Of a stretch of DNA of 6,589 nt, positions 1-6,589 are shown one piece after another. The position numbers were made by a program, and so were the translations under genes. Origin of the DNA: a virus (lineage: Duplodnaviria > Heunggongvirae > Uroviricota > Caudoviricetes); the IMG/VR virus record IMGVR_UViG_2563366849_000001; one strand, given 5' to 3'. Position 1 is the first letter of the stretch. Every line of letters begins with the position of its first letter. The notes below the pieces were generated by a model. It ran no database searches and had not been told where the DNA came from. It saw only the letters and a list, made by a program, of their open reading frames with translations.

Positions 1-198
1 GTTTTTTACTACGAGCGCGCCGTGTGTGCGATGGCGACCGCGTCGCTTTATGAGCGTTACCGCGGCGTGGATGCCAGTGCGAAAGGCGACAAGAAGGCCG
101 ACAGCATTGACAGCACCATTGATGAACTGTGGCGGGATATGCGCTGGGCGGTGGCGCGTATCCAGGACAAGCCGCGCTGCATCGTGAGTCAAATCTGA
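1..198 (+). CDS. L: 3' end of head completion/stabilisation protein gpL (5' part lies upstream of the window)
   Basis: Frame 1 is open from the window edge to TGA at 196-198 (…DELWRDMRWAVARIQDKPRCIVSQI*). The stop overlaps the ATG of the next gene (TGATG). Position immediately upstream of X matches P2 order L-X-Y. Identity is by synteny rather than a recognised motif. Confidence 0.6.
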   Translation, partial: VFYYERAVCAMATASLYERYRGVDASAKGDKKADSIDSTIDELWRDMRWAVARIQDKPRCIVSQI

Positions 199-401
199 TG
201 AAGACCTTTGCGCTACAGGGCGACACGCTCGACGCCATTTGTGTCCGGTATTACGGGCGCACTGAGGGCGTGGTCGAGACTGTGCTCGCCGCAAATCCGG
301 GACTGGCTGAACTGGGTGCGGTGCTGCCGCACGGCACCGCCGTCGAACTGCCCGACGTTCAGACCGCGCCCGTGGCTGAAACTGTCAATCTGTGGGAGTA
401 A
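198..401 (+). CDS. X: Tail protein gpX, small LysM-like protein (67 aa)
   Basis: ATG at 198 overlaps the upstream stop; 67 aa (MKTFALQGDTLDAICVRYYGRTEGVVETVLAANPGLAELG…NLWE), the size and sequence type of P2 gpX with a LysM-like 'DTLDAIC…YYG' signature. The ORF-track start at 129 is an in-frame upstream extension that overlaps L and is unlikely to be used. Confidence 0.85.
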   Translation: MKTFALQGDTLDAICVRYYGRTEGVVETVLAANPGLAELGAVLPHGTAVELPDVQTAPVAETVNLWE

Positions 402-404
402 CGC

Positions 405-689
405 ATGACAGCAGAAGAAAAAAGCGTCCTGTCGCTTTTCGTGATTGGGGTGCTGATTGTTGTCGGCAAGGTGCTTGCCGGTGGTGAACCCATCACCCCG
501 CGTCTGTTTATCGGGCGCATGTTGCTCGGTGGTTTTGTCTCGATGGTTGCCGGTGTTGTTCTGGTGCAGTTTCCTGACCTGTCACTGCCTGCGGTGTGCG
601 GCATCGGCTCCATGCTGGGTATCGCCGGTTATCAGGTGATTGAGATTGCCATTCAGCGCCGCTTTAAGGGCAGGGGGAAGCGGAATTAA
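405..689 (+). CDS. Y: Holin gpY (class I, three predicted transmembrane segments, basic C-terminus)
   Basis: GGGAG Shine-Dalgarno at 394-398, ATG at 405. 94 aa with three hydrophobic stretches (SVLSLFVIGVLIVVGKVLAGG / LFIGRMLLGGFVSMVAGVVLV / LPAVCGIGSMLGIAGYQVI) and a charged tail QRRFKGRGKRN. Follows X as in P2. The last few codons may be altered by the adjacent deletion junction. Confidence 0.8.
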   Translation: MTAEEKSVLSLFVIGVLIVVGKVLAGGEPITPRLFIGRMLLGGFVSMVAGVVLVQFPDLSLPAVCGIGSMLGIAGYQVIEIAIQRRFKGRGKRN

Positions 690-951
690 AACGGCCAGCG
701 TGACGGCTTCTGATTCTGTTACTGCCACGGTGCCGGTGGTCATGGTGAAAGCATCAACCCGCGTCACCCTGGACACACCGGAGGTGGTCTGCACCAACAG
801 GCTGATTACCGGCACGCTGGAAGTGCAGAAGGGCGGGACGATGCGCGGCAACATTGAACACACCGGCGGTGAACTCTCATCAAACGGGAAGGTACTGCAT
901 ACCCATAAACACCCCGGCGACAGCGGCGGCACAACCGGGGGACCTCTATGA
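679..951 (+). pseudogene. V: 3' fragment of baseplate spike gene V (about the C-terminal 90 codons; N-terminal domain deleted)
   Basis: Frame open from 640 but no plausible start or RBS of its own; its 5' part overlaps the Y 3' end. Translation …VPVVMVKASTRVTLDTPEVVCTNRLITGTLEVQKGGTMRGNIEHTGGELSSNGKVLHTHKHPGDSGGTTGGPL* resembles the C-terminal beta-helix tip of P2-type gpV spikes, including the His-x-His cluster. The TGA at 949-951 overlaps the W start (ATGA), as in an intact V-W junction. The full-length gene in P2 is roughly 210 codons. Confidence 0.7.
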
Positions 952-1295
952 CAGCGCGTTATCTCGGAATGAATCGCAGTGATGGCCTGACTGTCACTGA
1001 CCTTGAGCATATCAGCCAGAGTATCGGCGATATCCTGCGCACGCCGGTCGGCTCACGGGTGATGCGTCGTGATTACGGCTCGTTGCTGGCGTCAATGATT
1101 GACCAGCCGCAGACCCCGGCGCTTGAGTTGCAGATTAAGGTCGCCTGTTACATGGCGGTGCTGAAATGGGAACCCCGCGTCACCCTGTCATCTGTCACCA
1201 CGGCGCGCAGTTTTGACGGGCGAATGACGGTCACGTTAACCGGCCAGCACAACGACACCGGCCAGCCACTTTCGTTAACCATCCCTGTGAGTTGA
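948..1295 (+). CDS. W: Baseplate assembly protein gpW (gp25/GPW family, 115 aa)
   Basis: ATG at 948 coupled to the V stop; 115 aa (MTARYLGMNRSDGLTVTDLEHISQSIGDILRTPVGSRVMRRDYGS…) typical of the GPW/gp25 baseplate wedge family and the P2 gpW size. The stop at 1293-1295 lies 4 nt before the J start. Confidence 0.9.
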   Translation: MTARYLGMNRSDGLTVTDLEHISQSIGDILRTPVGSRVMRRDYGSLLASMIDQPQTPALELQIKVACYMAVLKWEPRVTLSSVTTARSFDGRMTVTLTGQHNDTGQPLSLTIPVS

Positions 1296-1299
1296 AACT

Positions 1300-1473
1300 A
1301 TGCCGATTATCGACCTGAACCAGCTACCCGCACCGGATGTGGTCGAGGAGCTGGACTTTGAAACCATTCTTGCCGAACGCAAGGCGACACTGATTTCCCT
1401 TTATCTGGGAGCTTTACGCCGCAACCGGTGTGGATGCCGTACCGATTCGTTTTGCAGGCTCTTACCAGCGTGA
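1300..1473 (+). pseudogene. J: Truncated baseplate gene J: about 35 native N-terminal codons, then out-of-frame read-through into FII sequence ending at TGA 1471-1473
   Basis: ATG at 1300 follows W as in P2. Translation MPIIDLNQLPAPDVVEELDFETILAERKATLISLY matches the gpJ N-terminus; from about 1405 the frame continues as LGALRRNRCGCRTDSFCRLLPA*, which is FII DNA read in the wrong frame. The intact gene in P2 is about 300 codons. Confidence 0.75.
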
Positions 1474-1708
1474 CGATACCGGCGAAACGGTGGCCGTCGA
1501 GGTGGTCATGCGTGGACGTCAGAAAGAAATCGACACCGGCGAGGGTAAACAGGGAGAAGACACCGAGTCGAAAATCTCCGTGGTCTGCACTTATTTCCGG
1601 CTGACGATGGACGGTAAGGAGCTGGTCGAAATTGACACCATCAACATGATTGAGAAGGTGAACGGCGTCGACCGGCTGGAGCAACACCGCCGCAATATCG
1701 GCCTGTGA
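1403..1708 (+). pseudogene. FII: 3' fragment of tail tube gene FII (about the C-terminal 100 codons, no native start)
   Basis: In the frame ending at TAA/TGA 1706-1708 the translation is IWELYAATGVDAVPIRFAGSYQRDDTGETVAVEVVMRGRQKEIDTGEGKQGEDTESKISVVCTYFRLTMDGKELVEIDTINMIEKVNGVDRLEQHRRNIGL*, which I recognise as the C-terminal part of P2-type tail tube protein FII (about 172 aa when intact). An in-frame stop at 1391-1393 lies just upstream; the ORF-track 'start' at 1430 is a GTG inside the gene. Located immediately upstream of E as in P2. Confidence 0.75.
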
Positions 1709-1715
1709 TTTTCAT

Positions 1716-1736
1716 CCGGTCAGCCTGGCTGACCGG
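1716..1736 (+). repeat. Perfect inverted repeat (CCGGTCAGCC-T-GGCTGACCGG) in the FII-E intergenic region; potential RNA stem-loop
   Basis: Read directly from the sequence: 10-nt arms that are exact reverse complements, 8 nt after the FII stop and about 28 nt before the E start. It is not followed by a U-run, so it is unlikely to be a classical intrinsic terminator; possibly an RNA stability or processing element. Confidence 0.45.
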
Positions 1737-1764
1737 TTAACCCTGATTCATAAGTGAGAAAACC

Positions 1765-2040
1765 ATGAACAAAGAAAATGTCATTACCCTGGACAATCCG
1801 GTCAAACGTGGTGAGCAGGTTATCGAACAGGTCACGCTGATGAAACCCAGTGCCGGGACGCTGCGCGGTGTCAGTCTGGCAGCGGTCGCGAACTCCGAAG
1901 TCGATGCACTGATTAAGGTGCTGCCGCGCATGACGGCACCGATGCTGACCGAGCAGGAAGTCGCCGCGCTGGAACTGCCTGACCTTGTGGCGCTGGCCGG
2001 TAAGGTGGTCGGTTTTTTGTCGCCGAACTCGGTGCAGTAA
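1765..2040 (+). CDS. E: Tail assembly chaperone gpE (91 aa)
   Basis: ATG at 1765, 91 aa ending TAA 2038-2040; contains the T TTT TTG slippery heptamer near its 3' end. Position between FII and T and the size match P2 gpE. Confidence 0.85.
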   Translation: MNKENVITLDNPVKRGEQVIEQVTLMKPSAGTLRGVSLAAVANSEVDALIKVLPRMTAPMLTEQEVAALELPDLVALAGKVVGFLSPNSVQ

Positions 2041-2192
2041 CGTTCCCGAAAAATCTGTCGGTCGATGACCTGATGGCGGATGTGGCAGTGATATTTCACT
2101 GGCCGCCATCAGAACTGTATCCCATGAGCCTGACCGAACTCATCACATGGCGCGAAAAGGCGCTCCGGCGAAGCGGAAACACGAATGAGTAA
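1765..2192 (+). CDS. E+E': gpE+E' tail assembly chaperone made by programmed -1 ribosomal frameshift (142 aa predicted)
   Basis: Slippery heptamer T-TTT-TTG at 2013-2019 in the E frame. The -1 frame is open from there (FFVAELGAVTFPKNLSVDDLMADVAVIFHWPPSELYPMSLTELITWREKALRRSGNTNE*) to TAA at 2190-2192, which overlaps the T start at 2185. 85 E codons plus 57 E' codons gives 142 aa. Same architecture as the known P2 E/E' and lambda G/GT chaperone pairs. Confidence 0.75.
2013..2019 (+). promoter_or_regulatory. -1 programmed frameshift slippery site (T TTT TTG)
   Basis: X-XXY-YYZ heptamer in the E reading frame (GGT TTT TTG), with a 57-codon open -1 frame downstream that ends exactly at the T start region. 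Confidence 0.7.
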
Positions 2193-4632
2193 CAATGTAA
2201 AATTACAGGTATTGCTCAGGGCTGTTGACCAGGCATCCCGCCCGTTTAAATCCATCCGTACAGCGAGCAAATCGCTGTCGGGGGATATCCGGGAAACACA
2301 AAAATCACTGCGCGAGCTGAACGGTCACGCATCCCGTATTGAGGGATTCCGCAAGACCAGTGCACAGCTCGCCGTGACTGGTCATGCACTTGAAAAGGCA
2401 CGGCAGGAAGCCAAAGCCCTTGCCACACAGTTTAAAAACACCGAACGTCCGACCCGTGCTCAGGCGAAAGTGCTGGAATCAGCAAAGCGAGCGGCGGAAG
2501 ACTTACAGGCGAAATATAACCGCCTGACGGATTCCGTTAAACGCCAGCAGCGGGAACTGGCCGCTGTGGGAATTAATACCCGCAATCTTGCACATGATGA
2601 GCAGGGGCTGAAAAACCGTATCAGTGAAACCACCGCACAGCTTAACCGTCAGCGCGACGCACTGGCGCGTGTCAGTGCACAACAGGCAAAACTTAACGCA
2701 GTCAAACAGCGTTATCAGGCCGGAAAAGAACTGGCAGGAAATATGGCCTCAGTGGGCGCTGCCGGTGTGGGGATTGCTGCTGCGGGAACGATGGCCGGAG
2801 TTAAGCTGCTGATGCCCGGTTATGAGTTTGCGCAGAAAAACTCAGAATTGCAGGCTGTGCTCGGTGTGGCAAAAGACTCCGCCGAAATGGCTGCACTACG
2901 CAAGCAGGCGCGCCAGCTCGGTGACAATACCGCCGCCTCAGCGGATGATGCGGCCGGTGCGCAGATTATCATTGCGAAAGCGGGTGGAGATGTTGATGCC
3001 ATTCAGGCGGCAACGCCGGTCACGCTGAACATGGCGCTGGCGAACCGTCGCACGATGGAAGAAAACGCCGCCCTGCTGATGGGGATGAAATCTGCCTTTC
3101 AGCTTTCAAACGATAAGGTCGCTCATATCGGGGATGTTCTCTCCATGACGATGAACAAAACCGCCGCCGATTTTGACGGTATGAGCGATGCGCTGACCTA
3201 TGCCGCACCTGTGGCAAAAAATGCCGGTGTCAGCATTGAAGAAACCGCCGCAATGGTCGGGGCGCTGCATGATGCAAAAATCACCGGTTCAATGGCGGGG
3301 ACGGGAAGCCGTGCCGTGTTAAGCCGCCTGCAGGCACCGACGGGAAAAGCATGGGATGCACTCAAAGAGCTTGGAGTGAAAACCTCAGACAGCAAGGGAA
3401 ACACCCGGACAATATTTACCATTCTGAAAGAAATGCAGGCCAGTTTTGAGAAAAACCGGCTCGGTACTGCCCAGCAGGCTGAATACATGAAAACTATTTT
3501 CGGGGAGGAGGCCAGCTCAGCCGCCGCCGTGCTGATGACTGCCGCCTCAAGCGGAAAGCTGGACAAACTGACCGCTGCGTTTAAAGCCTCAGACGGGAAG
3601 ACCGCCGAGCTGGTAAATATCATGCAGGACAACCTCGGCGGCGACTTTAAGGAGTTTCAGTCCGCTTATGAGGCGGTGGGGACTGACCTGTTTGACCAGC
3701 AGGAAGGCGCACTGCGTAAGCTCACTCAGACGGCCACAAAGTATGTGTTAAAACTCGACGGCTGGATCCAGAAAAACAAATCACTGGCGTCAACCATCGG
3801 CATCATTGCCGGTGGCGCGCTGGCGCTTATTGGCATCATCGGTGCAATTGGTCTTGTAGCCTGGCCGGTTATCACCGGCATCAATGCCATCATCGCGGCA
3901 GCAGGCGCAATGGGTGCAATCTTCACGACGGTTGGTAGTGCCGTTATGACGGCCATCGGGGCGATTAGCTGGCCGGTTGTGGCCGTGGTGGCTGCAATTG
4001 TCGCCGGGGCGTTGCTTATCCGTAAATACTGGGAGCCTGTCAGCGCATTCTTTGGCGGTGTGGTGGAAGGGCTGAAAGCGGCATTTGCGCCGGTGGGGGA
4101 ACTGTTCACGCCACTTAAACCGGTGTTTGACTGGCTGGGTGAAAAGTTACAGGCCGCGTGGCAATGGTTTAAAAACCTGATTGCCCCGGTCAAAGCCACC
4201 CAGGACACCCTGAACCGTTGCCGTGACACGGGCGTCATGTTCGGGCAGGCACTGGCTGACGCGCTGATGCTGCCGCTTAATGCGTTCAACAAACTGCGCA
4301 GTGGTATTGACTGGGTACTGGAAAAACTCGGTGTCATCAACAAAGAGTCAGACACACTTGACCAGACCGCCGCAAGGACTAATGCCGCCACGTATGGCAC
4401 CGGTGGTTATATTCCGGCGACCAGCTCTTATGCAGGCTATCAGGCTTATCAGCCGGTCACGGCACCGGCTGGCCGCTCTTATGTGGACCAGAGTAAAAAC
4501 GAATATCACATCAGCCTGACCGGTGGTACTGCGCCGGGGACACAGCTCGACCGCCAGTTACAGGATGCGCTCGAAAAATACGAGCGGGATAAACGTGCGC
4601 GCGCCCGTGCCAGCATGATGCATGACGGTTAA
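2185..4632 (+). CDS. T: Tail tape measure protein gpT (815 aa)
   Basis: 815-aa ORF directly after E/E'. The N-terminal third is Ala/Gln/Arg/Lys-rich and predicted coiled-coil; the central part is alpha-helical and Ala-rich; a long Gly/Ala/Ile-rich hydrophobic segment lies at about nt 3778-4030 (IGIIAGGALALIGIIGAIGLVAWPVITGINAIIAAAGAMGAIF…); C-terminal globular part. Size and architecture are typical of a myovirus tape measure and equal P2 gpT length. Confidence 0.9.
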   Translation: MSNNVKLQVLLRAVDQASRPFKSIRTASKSLSGDIRETQKSLRELNGHASRIEGFRKTSAQLAVTGHALEKARQEAKALATQFKNTERPTRAQAKVLESAKRAAEDLQAKYNRLTDSVKRQQRELAAVGINTRNLAHDEQGLKNRISETTAQLNRQRDALARVSAQQAKLNAVKQRYQAGKELAGNMASVGAAGVGIAAAGTMAGVKLLMPGYEFAQKNSELQAVLGVAKDSAEMAALRKQARQLGDNTAASADDAAGAQIIIAKAGGDVDAIQAATPVTLNMALANRRTMEENAALLMGMKSAFQLSNDKVAHIGDVLSMTMNKTAADFDGMSDALTYAAPVAKNAGVSIEETAAMVGALHDAKITGSMAGTGSRAVLSRLQAPTGKAWDALKELGVKTSDSKGNTRTIFTILKEMQASFEKNRLGTAQQAEYMKTIFGEEASSAAAVLMTAASSGKLDKLTAAFKASDGKTAELVNIMQDNLGGDFKEFQSAYEAVGTDLFDQQEGALRKLTQTATKYVLKLDGWIQKNKSLASTIGIIAGGALALIGIIGAIGLVAWPVITGINAIIAAAGAMGAIFTTVGSAVMTAIGAISWPVVAVVAAIVAGALLIRKYWEPVSAFFGGVVEGLKAAFAPVGELFTPLKPVFDWLGEKLQAAWQWFKNLIAPVKATQDTLNRCRDTGVMFGQALADALMLPLNAFNKLRSGIDWVLEKLGVINKESDTLDQTAARTNAATYGTGGYIPATSSYAGYQAYQPVTAPAGRSYVDQSKNEYHISLTGGTAPGTQLDRQLQDALEKYERDKRARARASMMHDG

Positions 4633-4646
4633 GGAGGTGACGAAAA

Positions 4647-5126
4647 ATGATGCTCGCGTTAGGTATGTTTGTTTTTATGCGCCAGACGCTGCCACACCAG
4701 ACCATGCAGCGTGAATCAGATTATCGCTGGCCGTCAAATTCCCGTATCGGTAAACGGGACGCCTACCAGTTTCTCGGTGTGGGTGAGGAAAACATCACGC
4801 TTGCCGGTGTGCTTTATCCAGAACTGACCGGCGGCAAGCTGACGATGACCACGCTCAGGCTGATGGCCGAGGAAGGCCGGGCGTGGCCGTTGCTGGATGG
4901 CACCGGCATGATTTACGGCATGTATGTCATCAGCAGGGTGAGTGAAACAGGGAGTATTTTCTTTGCAGACGGCACACCCCGAAAAATTGATTTTACGCTG
5001 TCGCTCACCCGCGTTGATGAATCACTGGCCGCGCTTTATGGCGATATCGGTAAACAGGCGGAATCGCTCATCGGTAAGGCCGGCAGTATGGCGACCAGAT
5101 TCACGGGTATGACGGGGGCGGGATAA
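4647..5126 (+). CDS. U: Tail protein gpU (tail terminator/tail formation protein, 159 aa)
   Basis: Strong SD AGGAGGT at 4632-4638, ATG at 4647; 159 aa; the stop TAA at 5124-5126 overlaps the D start (TAATG). Position and size match P2 gpU. Confidence 0.85.
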   Translation: MMLALGMFVFMRQTLPHQTMQRESDYRWPSNSRIGKRDAYQFLGVGEENITLAGVLYPELTGGKLTMTTLRLMAEEGRAWPLLDGTGMIYGMYVISRVSETGSIFFADGTPRKIDFTLSLTRVDESLAALYGDIGKQAESLIGKAGSMATRFTGMTGAG

Positions 5127-6289
5127 TGCTGGATGCACTGACATTTGATGCAGGCAGTACGCTGACGCCGGATTACATGCTGATGCTCGACAGCAGGGAT
5201 ATTACCGGCAATATCAGCGACCGTCTGATGAGCATGACCCTGACGGATAACCGGGGCTTTGAGGCTGACCAGCTTGATATTGAACTGAACGATGCCGACG
5301 GGCAGGTCGGGCTGCCGGTTCGTGGCGCTGTCCTGACGGTGTATATCGGCTGGAAAGGTTTTGCCCTGGTATGCAAAGGGAAATTCACCGTTGATGAGGT
5401 TGAACACCGGGGCGCGCCGGATGTGGTTACCATCCGCGCCCGGAGTGCAGATTTTCGCGGGACGCTCAATTCCCGCCGTGAAGGCTCATGGCATGACACC
5501 ACGCTCGGTGCGATTGTTGAGGCGATAGCCTCCCGTAACAGGCTGGAAGCCAGTGTCGCGCCGTCACTGGCCGGAATTAAAATCCCGCACATCGACCAGT
5601 CGCAGGAGTCTGATGCGAAATTCCTGACCCGTCTTGCAGAACGCAACGGCGGTGAGGTGTCGGTAAAAATGGGAAAACTGTTGTTTCTCAAAGCGGGGCA
5701 GGGAGTGACGGCCAGCGGTAAAAAAATCCCGCAGGTCACCATAACCCGCAGCGACGGCGACCGCCATCATTTTGCGATTGCTGACCGTGGAGCCTACACC
5801 GGTGTAACGGCAAAATGGCTACACACCAAAGACCCGAAGCCTCAAAAGCAGAAGGTAAAACTGAAACGCAAAAAGAAAGAGAAACACCTGCGCGCACTGG
5901 AGCACCCGAAAGCGAAACCGGTCAGGCAGAAGAAAGCGCCTAAAGTACCGGAAGCGCGTGAAGGTGAATACATGGCCGGTGAGGCTGACAACGTTTTTGC
6001 CCTGACCACGGTATATGCCACGAAAGCGCAGGCCATGCGCGCCGCTCAGGCGAAGTGGGATAAGCTGCAACGGGGCGTTGCGGAGTTCTCCATCAGTCTG
6101 GCTACCGGTCGTGCTGATATTTACACGGAAACACCGGTTAAAGTGTCAGGCTTTAAGCGCGTCATAGACGAGCAGGACTGGACAATCACTAAGGTGACAC
6201 ATTTTCTGAATAATAGCGGCTTCACGACGTCCTTGGAGCTTGAGGTCAGGCTTTCTGATGTGGAGTACGAAACAGAAGATGATGAGTGA
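5126..6289 (+). CDS. D: Tail protein gpD (phage late control gene D family, 387 aa)
   Basis: ATG at 5126 translationally coupled to U; 387 aa, the P2 gpD size; last gene of the F-E-T-U-D tail operon, directly upstream of ogr. Contains an unusually lysine-rich segment, residues about 233-280 (KDPKPQKQKVKLKRKKKEKHLRALEHPKAKPVRQKKAPKVPEAREGE). Confidence 0.9.
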   Translation: MLDALTFDAGSTLTPDYMLMLDSRDITGNISDRLMSMTLTDNRGFEADQLDIELNDADGQVGLPVRGAVLTVYIGWKGFALVCKGKFTVDEVEHRGAPDVVTIRARSADFRGTLNSRREGSWHDTTLGAIVEAIASRNRLEASVAPSLAGIKIPHIDQSQESDAKFLTRLAERNGGEVSVKMGKLLFLKAGQGVTASGKKIPQVTITRSDGDRHHFAIADRGAYTGVTAKWLHTKDPKPQKQKVKLKRKKKEKHLRALEHPKAKPVRQKKAPKVPEAREGEYMAGEADNVFALTTVYATKAQAMRAAQAKWDKLQRGVAEFSISLATGRADIYTETPVKVSGFKRVIDEQDWTITKVTHFLNNSGFTTSLELEVRLSDVEYETEDDE

Positions 6290-6307
6290 TGCTTTTATTT
6301 TATCTGT

Positions 6308-6336
6308 TTGTTTTATAAGGATAAATTAACTAAAAT
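6308..6336 (+). promoter_or_regulatory. Candidate sigma70 promoter for ogr (TTGTTT - 17 nt - TAAAAT)
   Basis: -35-like TTGTTT at 6308-6313 and -10-like TAAAAT at 6331-6336 with a 17-nt spacer, in the AT-rich gap between the D stop (6289) and the ogr start (6371). Sequence-pattern prediction only. Confidence 0.4.
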
Positions 6337-6370
6337 GGCACTATCAACAAAACCGGAAGAGGTGCTCGCG

Positions 6371-6589
6371 ATGTTTCATTGTCCTTTATGCCAGCATGCC
6401 GCACATGCGCGTACAAGTCGCTATATCACTGACACGACAAAAGAGCGTTATCACCAGTGCCAGAACGTGAATTGCAGCGCCACGTTCATCACTTATGAGT
6501 CGGTACAGCGATACATCGTGAAGCCGGGAGAAGTCCACGCCGTAAGGCCGCACCCGTTGCCGTCAGGGCAGCAAATTATGTGGATGTAA
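6371..6589 (+). CDS. ogr: Ogr, Cys4 zinc-finger activator of P2 late promoters (72 aa, complete)
   Basis: ATG at 6371 with GAAGAGG RBS about 8 nt upstream; 72 aa MFHCPLCQHAAHARTSRYITDTTKERYHQCQNVNCSATFITYESVQRYIVKPGEVHAVRPHPLPSGQQIMWM*, matching as far as I can recall the P2 Ogr / E. coli OgrK sequence with the C-x2-C-x22-C-x4-C zinc-binding motif (Cys4, 7, 30, 35). The stop TAA is the last three bases of the window. The ORF-track start at 6308 adds a 21-aa extension that I consider spurious. Confidence 0.9.
   Translation: MFHCPLCQHAAHARTSRYITDTTKERYHQCQNVNCSATFITYESVQRYIVKPGEVHAVRPHPLPSGQQIMWM

Follow-up and report, generated by a model that had tools for sequence, protein, structure and literature searches.

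An out-of-frame join of the baseplate gene J and the tail tube gene FII in a defective P2-like prophage of Escherichia coli

The window analysed here, a stretch of 6,589 nt, contains an ORF that begins as the baseplate gene J of phage P2 and runs out in DNA of the tail tube gene FII, read in a different frame. This raises the question of how two genes that lie kilobases apart in P2 came to be joined, and of what the join has left of the prophage in which it is found.

Position of the window in a P2-like prophage

BLASTN comparison of the window with P2 (AF063097) yielded three collinear, ungapped segments of 97-98% identity (Table 1), and both the length and the identity of these matches are far beyond what would be expected by chance. 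Neighbouring segments overlapped by 5 nt and 11 nt. Gene order and nucleotide identity (97-98% for L, X, Y, V′, W, J′, FII′, E, E′, T, U, D and ogr) are those of P2, from which the window differs in that P2 positions 6991-10671 and 11396-19068 are missing and J and FII are fused out of frame. The window was identical to the start of contig KE137287.1 (GCA_000408785.1) over all of its 6,589 nt and thus begins at a contig end inside gene L. Beyond ogr, this source contig continued into the host genes pflB, focA and ycaO, with P2 homology running on to P2 24342; the window therefore represents the right-hand half of a defective prophage of the P2-like (Peduovirus) group, integrated next to pflB in E. 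coli. The assignment to Peduovirus was in agreement with the collinear late genes and with the ogr-pflB joint, which recurred in 393 complete genomes.

The nearest intact relative found was a complete P2-like prophage at the identical ogr-pflB site of E. coli DETEC-S792 (NZ_CP116067.1; locus L005). Its identity to the three window segments together with the host flank was 98.8%, 99.2% and 99.2%, and its J-to-FII region was continuous. In contrast to the window, it has the full K-to-V (3,577 bp) and J-to-FII (6,592 bp) intervals.

The first of the two gaps, here termed junction 1, lies between the holin gene Y and the spike gene V. The left segment matched up to position 679 and the right segment from 678. 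Compared with P2, the genes K, lysA, lysB, lysC, R, S and orf30, the O-operon terminator, the pV promoter and the 5′ part of V were removed. The Y ORF was still full-length, although three of its C-terminal codons were altered by the junction. Since Y was kept while the lysis genes were lost, the locus is left with a holin without an endolysin.

Between FII and E, the window carries at 1716-1736 an inverted repeat whose 9-bp arms are perfectly matched around a 3-nt loop (CCGGTCAGC CTG GCTGACCGG). The repeat was perfect in DETEC-S792 too, had one mismatch in P2 and was followed by no run of T; it is a native phage feature.

Table 1. Segments, genes, remnants and junctions of the window, with the corresponding P2 positions
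Feature	Window position	Strand	P2 position	Remarks
Segment 1	1-679		6312-6990	BLASTN; L 3′ end, X, Y
Segment 2	675-1411		10667-11403	BLASTN, 97.2%; V 3′ part, W, first bases of J
Segment 3	1401-6589		19066-24254	BLASTN, 97.3%; FII 3′ part, E, E′, T, U, D, ogr
L, 3′ end (capsid completion)	1-198	+		P2 match, Pfam Phage_GPL; source contig starts here
X (tail)	198-401	+		Intact; collinear with P2 X; Pfam Phage_tail_X
Y (holin)	405-689	+		Pfam Phage_holin_3_2, E 2e-42; 94 aa versus 93 in P2, end altered by junction 1
Junction 1 (Y-V′)	678-679			AA microhomology; Y joined to last 92 codons of V
V′, 3′ part of baseplate spike V	680-951	+	10672-10943	Pfam Phage_spike, GpV Apex; out of frame with Y
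W (baseplate)	948-1295	+		Intact; Pfam GPW_gp25; collinear with P2 W
J′ (baseplate)	1300-1403	+	11292-11395	First 104 nt of J (34 codons + 2 nt)
Fusion ORF	1300-1473	+		57 codons; 35 gpJ residues and 22 from FII DNA in the wrong frame; TGA at 1471-1473
Junction 2 (J-FII)	1401-1403			TTA microhomology within an 11-nt J/FII patch (1401-1411), 8/11 identical, TTAyCyGGrAG
FII′ (tail tube)	1404-1708	+		FII codons 72-172 and stop; without its own start codon at the join
GTG ORF	1430-1708	+		92 codons, within FII′; GenBank label: major tail tube protein
E and E+E′ (tail assembly chaperones)	1765-2192	+	19430-19857	Intact; gapless versus P2; Pfam Phage_TAC_7
T (tape measure)	2185-4632	+		Intact; 815 aa, same in P2
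U (tail)	4647-5126	+		Intact
D (tail)	5126-6289	+		Intact
ogr (late-gene activator)	6371-6589	+		Prophage right end and host pflB come next in source contig

The join of J and FII

Base-by-base comparison with P2 and with the closer relative showed that the J match ended at window position 1403 and that the FII match began at 1401, which places the crossover inside TTA (junction 2). An initial annotation, made from the letters of the sequence, had described the start of J, up to about 1404, as fused out of frame to the last ~100 codons of FII, beginning at about 1403, with nothing in between. The alignments bore this out on every point: the two BLASTN segments met at these positions, none of the intervening ~7 kb of P2 was present, gpJ residues 1-35 were identical to the window at 34 of 35 positions, and the FII part was recognised both by identity and by its match to the Phage_tube profile. 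Its estimate of ~7 kb for the lost interval held as to the absence of the interval, while the size depends on the reference, being 7,673 bp (7.7 kb) against P2 and 6,592 bp (6.6 kb) against DETEC-S792, the closest intact relative found.

The sequence at the crossover was CCCTTTACCCGGAAGA in J, TTCGGTTATCTGGGAGC in FII and CCCTTTATCTGGGAGC in the window. TTA was present at the J site and at the FII site in both P2 and DETEC-S792. The J sequence CCCTTTACCCGGAAGA was invariant in the intact J copies collected (57/57), so the exact shared stretch is TTA only; given this invariant allele, a longer microhomology in the true parent seems unlikely. A join guided by microhomology, as had been proposed initially, is reasonable in view of the TTA inside the 8/11 patch, but the pair CTTTAT/CTTTAC named for it does not mark the crossover: CTTTAC (1412-1417) belongs to FII itself, lies 8 nt downstream and had no visible part in the join. 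Of 200,000 random breakpoint pairs taken from the intact prophage, 5.6% showed a microhomology of at least 3 nt, 0.9% an 8/11 patch and 0.5% the two together. By both criteria, the homology at junction 2 is thus above random expectation (0.5% of pairs). No inserted or filler DNA, IS end, att or recombinase site or scar was found at junction 2, where the segments abut and overlap directly. This anatomy fits the class of deletions known to be associated with microhomology.

The first bases of the J codons fall on window positions with remainder 1 modulo 3 and those of the FII codons on positions with remainder 2, which puts the fusion out of frame. Translation of the fusion ORF gave MPIIDLNQLPAPDVVEELDFETILAERKATLISLY, followed by 22 out-of-frame residues and the TGA codon; just 35 of the 302 gpJ residues are left. 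A Pfam search with this 57-aa product returned no match, a Baseplate_J domain included. Translation of 1403-1708 gave IWELYAATGVDAVPIRF...NIGL and a stop codon and was identical to gpFII residues 72-172 at 101 of 101 positions. It covered positions 67-165 of the 165-position Pfam profile Phage_tube (PF04985) and not its full length, residues 1-71 being gone. The GTG ORF within this remnant was preceded by no Shine-Dalgarno sequence, the upstream sequence being CGCAACCGGTGTG. In the deposited records, the 57-aa ORF is named hypothetical protein A31A_01581 (ELF21251.1, KTE156) and EOW62590.1 (GCA_000408785.1). The 57-aa "hypothetical protein" and the 92-aa "major tail tube protein" are debris of one deletion, and should be annotated as pseudogene fragments.

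Strain range and remaining gene set

Among 5,426 complete E. coli genomes, 1,577 had a P2-like J or FII match and 393 had a P2-like prophage at ogr-pflB, while the junction was found in none of the 5,426. It was covered by none of 50,697 phage records, and the exact junction 26-mer was found in none of 185,579 species-representative genomes. The exact 57-aa fusion ORF was found on two contigs only, from KTE156 (GCA_000351965.1) and from GCA_000408785.1, both of them NCBI drafts; an exact-protein look-up in run-level (Logan) assemblies returned none. Whether the deletion is fixed or strain-specific, a question raised with the initial annotation, is thereby answered: the J-FII deletion is lineage-specific and is not fixed in E. 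coli.

The same records showed a peculiarity of genome deposition. In many complete E. coli chromosome records, FII of the pflB-site prophage lay at ~21-24 kb on the plus strand, and the DETEC-S792 chromosome record begins within the P2 replication gene A. A genome-rotation step thus seems to have taken the phage replication gene as the chromosome start.

In P2, the interval lost at junction 2 runs from the remaining part of J through I, H, G, the fun/Z cargo region, the pF promoter and FI to codon 71 of FII. As judged by gene content, the element is without the gene set that a viable phage would need, since K, R, S, the 5′ part of V, most of J, I, H, G, FI and the 5′ part of FII are gone. The ribosome site of J survives and would now drive a 57-residue nonsense fusion peptide, whereas the FII remnant would be either untranslated or made from the poor GTG start alone. 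As pV was lost with junction 1 and pF with junction 2, W, E, E′, T, U and D would be transcribed only by read-through from the upstream pO operon. The locus would no longer be able to build sheath, tube, baseplate wedge or fibres, and the initial statement that it can make no sheath, complete tube, baseplate or fibres would hold for this locus in view of the missing genes. The prophage at the window is, in this respect, presumably dead for tail production.

To form a tailocin, an element must encode sheath, full tube, baseplate, fibres and a lysis cassette. The window resembles R-type tailocins and the P2-related tail cluster of E. coli ST131, which is discussed in PMC9205054, in that P2-type tail genes lie in the chromosome; it differs from them, as far as the genes tell, in that sheath, most of the baseplate, fibres and endolysin are missing and the tube gene is truncated. 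The window is also like other decayed P2-like prophages of E. coli (ETEC1701 at yegQ; remnants of the type FII′-E-T-U-D-ogr), which are readily found, are internally deleted and have likewise kept the right-hand tail genes and ogr by the host flank. These have different breakpoints and left partners, however, and none has the J-FII join. Degeneration of prophages by deletion is a well-established general pattern (reviewed in PMC6379469).

Origin of the join

Junction 2 is best explained as the true scar of a deletion in a P2-type prophage undergoing decay; it very probably arose by a spontaneous loss of ~6.6-7.7 kb joined at TTA. The prophage would already have been resident at pflB in an ancestor of the two KTE-accession strains when the J-to-FII interval was spontaneously deleted and the ends were joined at TTA within a patch of imperfect similarity. 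The direct abutment at TTA, the distance of 6.6 kb between the two sites in intact relatives and a homeology above random together point to illegitimate recombination, and the anatomy of the junction suggests a RecA-independent route. Slipped mispairing or template switching at a replication fork and microhomology-guided joining of a break are candidate routes. The mechanistic inference is only modest, because a 3-nt microhomology alone occurs in ~6% of random joins.

It might further be argued that the FII end of the deletion was not random, i.e. that a stretch of ~20 nt, GCTTCCCGGATTCGGTTATCTGGGAGC (P2 ~19049-19075), is a recurrent breakpoint at which a hairpin may stall replication and promote template switching. 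A look-up of the exact 92-aa ORF of FII′ revealed other P2 remnants with different left partners. In L009 (gpO/FII), L010 (Q 3′ end/FII) and L015 (inverted U/FII), the breaks were at CTT/CCCGG, ~19986-19990 in L005 coordinates and 13-15 nt upstream of the window's position. The break of L012 (Q 3′ end/FII), at TA/TCTGGGAGC, was at the same point as in the window, and that of L011 was at 20023 (L005 coordinates), 20 nt further on. In an unbiased scan, the 23-mer just right of the breakpoint was searched in IMG/VR, JGI metagenomes and representative genomes. Three genuine breaks were obtained from 242 copies; one, in L203, joined FI to FII at TATC (20002-20005), again at the window's position, and the other two lay elsewhere, at 19834 and 19842. 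The window's FII breakpoint was common to three independent events within 5 nt, with three more 13-15 nt upstream. This would amount to at least six independent events at the FII stretch, with J, the Q 3′ end (twice), O, FI and inverted U as partners, and with the hairpin or homeology to the Q 3′ end as possible cause.

Such a hot spot is at most suggested by these breaks, and we consider it rather unlikely. Five of the junctions had come through the exact 92-aa ORF, by which only breaks within a 63-nt interval can be called, whereas two of the just three real breaks in the unbiased sample lay elsewhere. The predicted small imperfect DNA hairpin (CCCGGAT/ATCTGGG) spans both break positions, but it was no better than that of shuffled sequences (z -1.5). 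A contig-start control gave 44, 50, 36, 87 and 51 index blocks for five successive codons, without a spike, and the rough post-hoc probability of the clustering, ~1e-2 to 1e-3, is not decisive. The use of contig starts to detect a recurrent fork at the breakpoint was given up because the control showed no spike at the junction. To collect truncated copies free of bias, IMG/VR was scanned for a negative pattern in which the FII 3′ anchor was native but the bases 210 nt upstream of it were not; only L031 and one indel copy came back, too few to bear on a hot spot. In the FII listing of complete genomes, 1,545 of 1,565 records had an intact copy, and truncated FII is therefore too rare to be surveyed there.

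One further candidate break, at 1-170 of L202 (metagenome contig OJKE01001287.1), proved to be a Nextera adapter (…TCGTCGGCAGCGTCAGAATGTGTATAAGAGACAG) fused to FII at the contig end and not a deletion. This contig is contaminated with Illumina Nextera adapter, which mimics a breakpoint.

The remnants L009-L012 were found on contigs from GCA_050372215.1, GCA_021646645.1, ERZ19591200 and SRR13089975, beside fieF-like or yegQ-like host genes. All four keep gpA, cargo genes (DNA methylase and HATPase, Fic, or protein kinases) and the block FII′-E-T-U-D-ogr. L010-L012 have lost all head and most tail genes, with only ~300-410 nt of the cos/Q 3′ region left, and L009 still has Q, P and part of O. 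A homeologous patch, TTCCCGrATTC, is common to FII and the 3′ end of Q in L010 and L012 and may be the reason for repeated Q-FII deletions.

A deletion scar presupposes that the join exists in the genome, and the two assemblies in which it occurs are drafts with KTE-type accessions, presumably from the same sequencing project. The join could be an artefact, i.e. a contig made chimeric in the assembly of a draft genome in which an intact P2-like prophage is also present. The window begins at a contig end within gene L, and the fusion ORF is confined to NCBI drafts. The KTE156 scaffold KB733421.1 (L002) contains three N runs, which flank the junction region. Between 10600 and 11746 it carries a 560-bp repeat of J′-FII′-E, through a join of E (P2 19600) to J (P2 11367), and a further join of T (P2 19871) to M/L (P2 5903) lies beside N runs of 6.7 kb and 4.3 kb. 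These odd joins resemble assembler confusion; they may reflect a tandem amplification of the deleted segment (unit ~2.6 kb) or a mis-assembly, and together with the N runs they indicate that assembly quality is imperfect there. However, both deletion junctions were identical base for base in the two assemblies, which differed at 11 other positions and are therefore not copies of one assembly. Moreover, both were in deletion orientation (earlier to later), while the suspicious joins of KTE156 were in duplication orientation. As assemblers mis-join at long shared repeats and not at 3-nt identities, a twofold mis-assembly at a 3-nt identity is very unlikely, and we regard an artefact as highly improbable.

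Ten of the differences between the window and KTE156 lay in T-U-D, in clusters at 2268-2271, 3915-3936 and 5326-5428 and at an isolated site, 4548. The DETEC-S792 base matched KTE156 at six of these and the window at four. The pattern resembles that of short tracts of gene conversion, with other P2-like copies as donors, or that of two copies collapsed in assembly.

It is scarcely credible that the deleted prophage has been domesticated, with the survivors Y, W, E, T, U, D and ogr or the fusion peptide serving the host. Every surviving gene has indeed kept a full-length ORF of P2 size and the structure is common to two strains, but a recent deletion would leave the ORFs intact anyway, only two drafts among many thousands of genomes carry the structure, the surviving structural parts are of no use in the absence of sheath, tube and baseplate, and the fusion is out of frame, its tail being without relation to any family (no Pfam match). 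The possibility of an engineered deletion was dropped: neither scar nor cassette is present, and the annotated sources of the sequence are E. coli KTE156 and another NCBI draft.

A spontaneous deletion in a resident prophage remains the preferred reading, and the process is ordinary prophage decay. As an allele of this very familiar process, the J-FII join had not been described before; it has so far been seen in only two draft genomes, and beyond annotation the deletion matters little. Its value is that of a clean, base-resolved case of microhomology-associated prophage decay in which an intact parent is known at the same chromosomal site. If the FII stretch were indeed a recurrent breakpoint, the junction in the window would be one case of a predictable decay path that leaves FII′-E-T-U-D-ogr remnants, and such a recurrence, once confirmed, would tell how the common P2 prophage family erodes.
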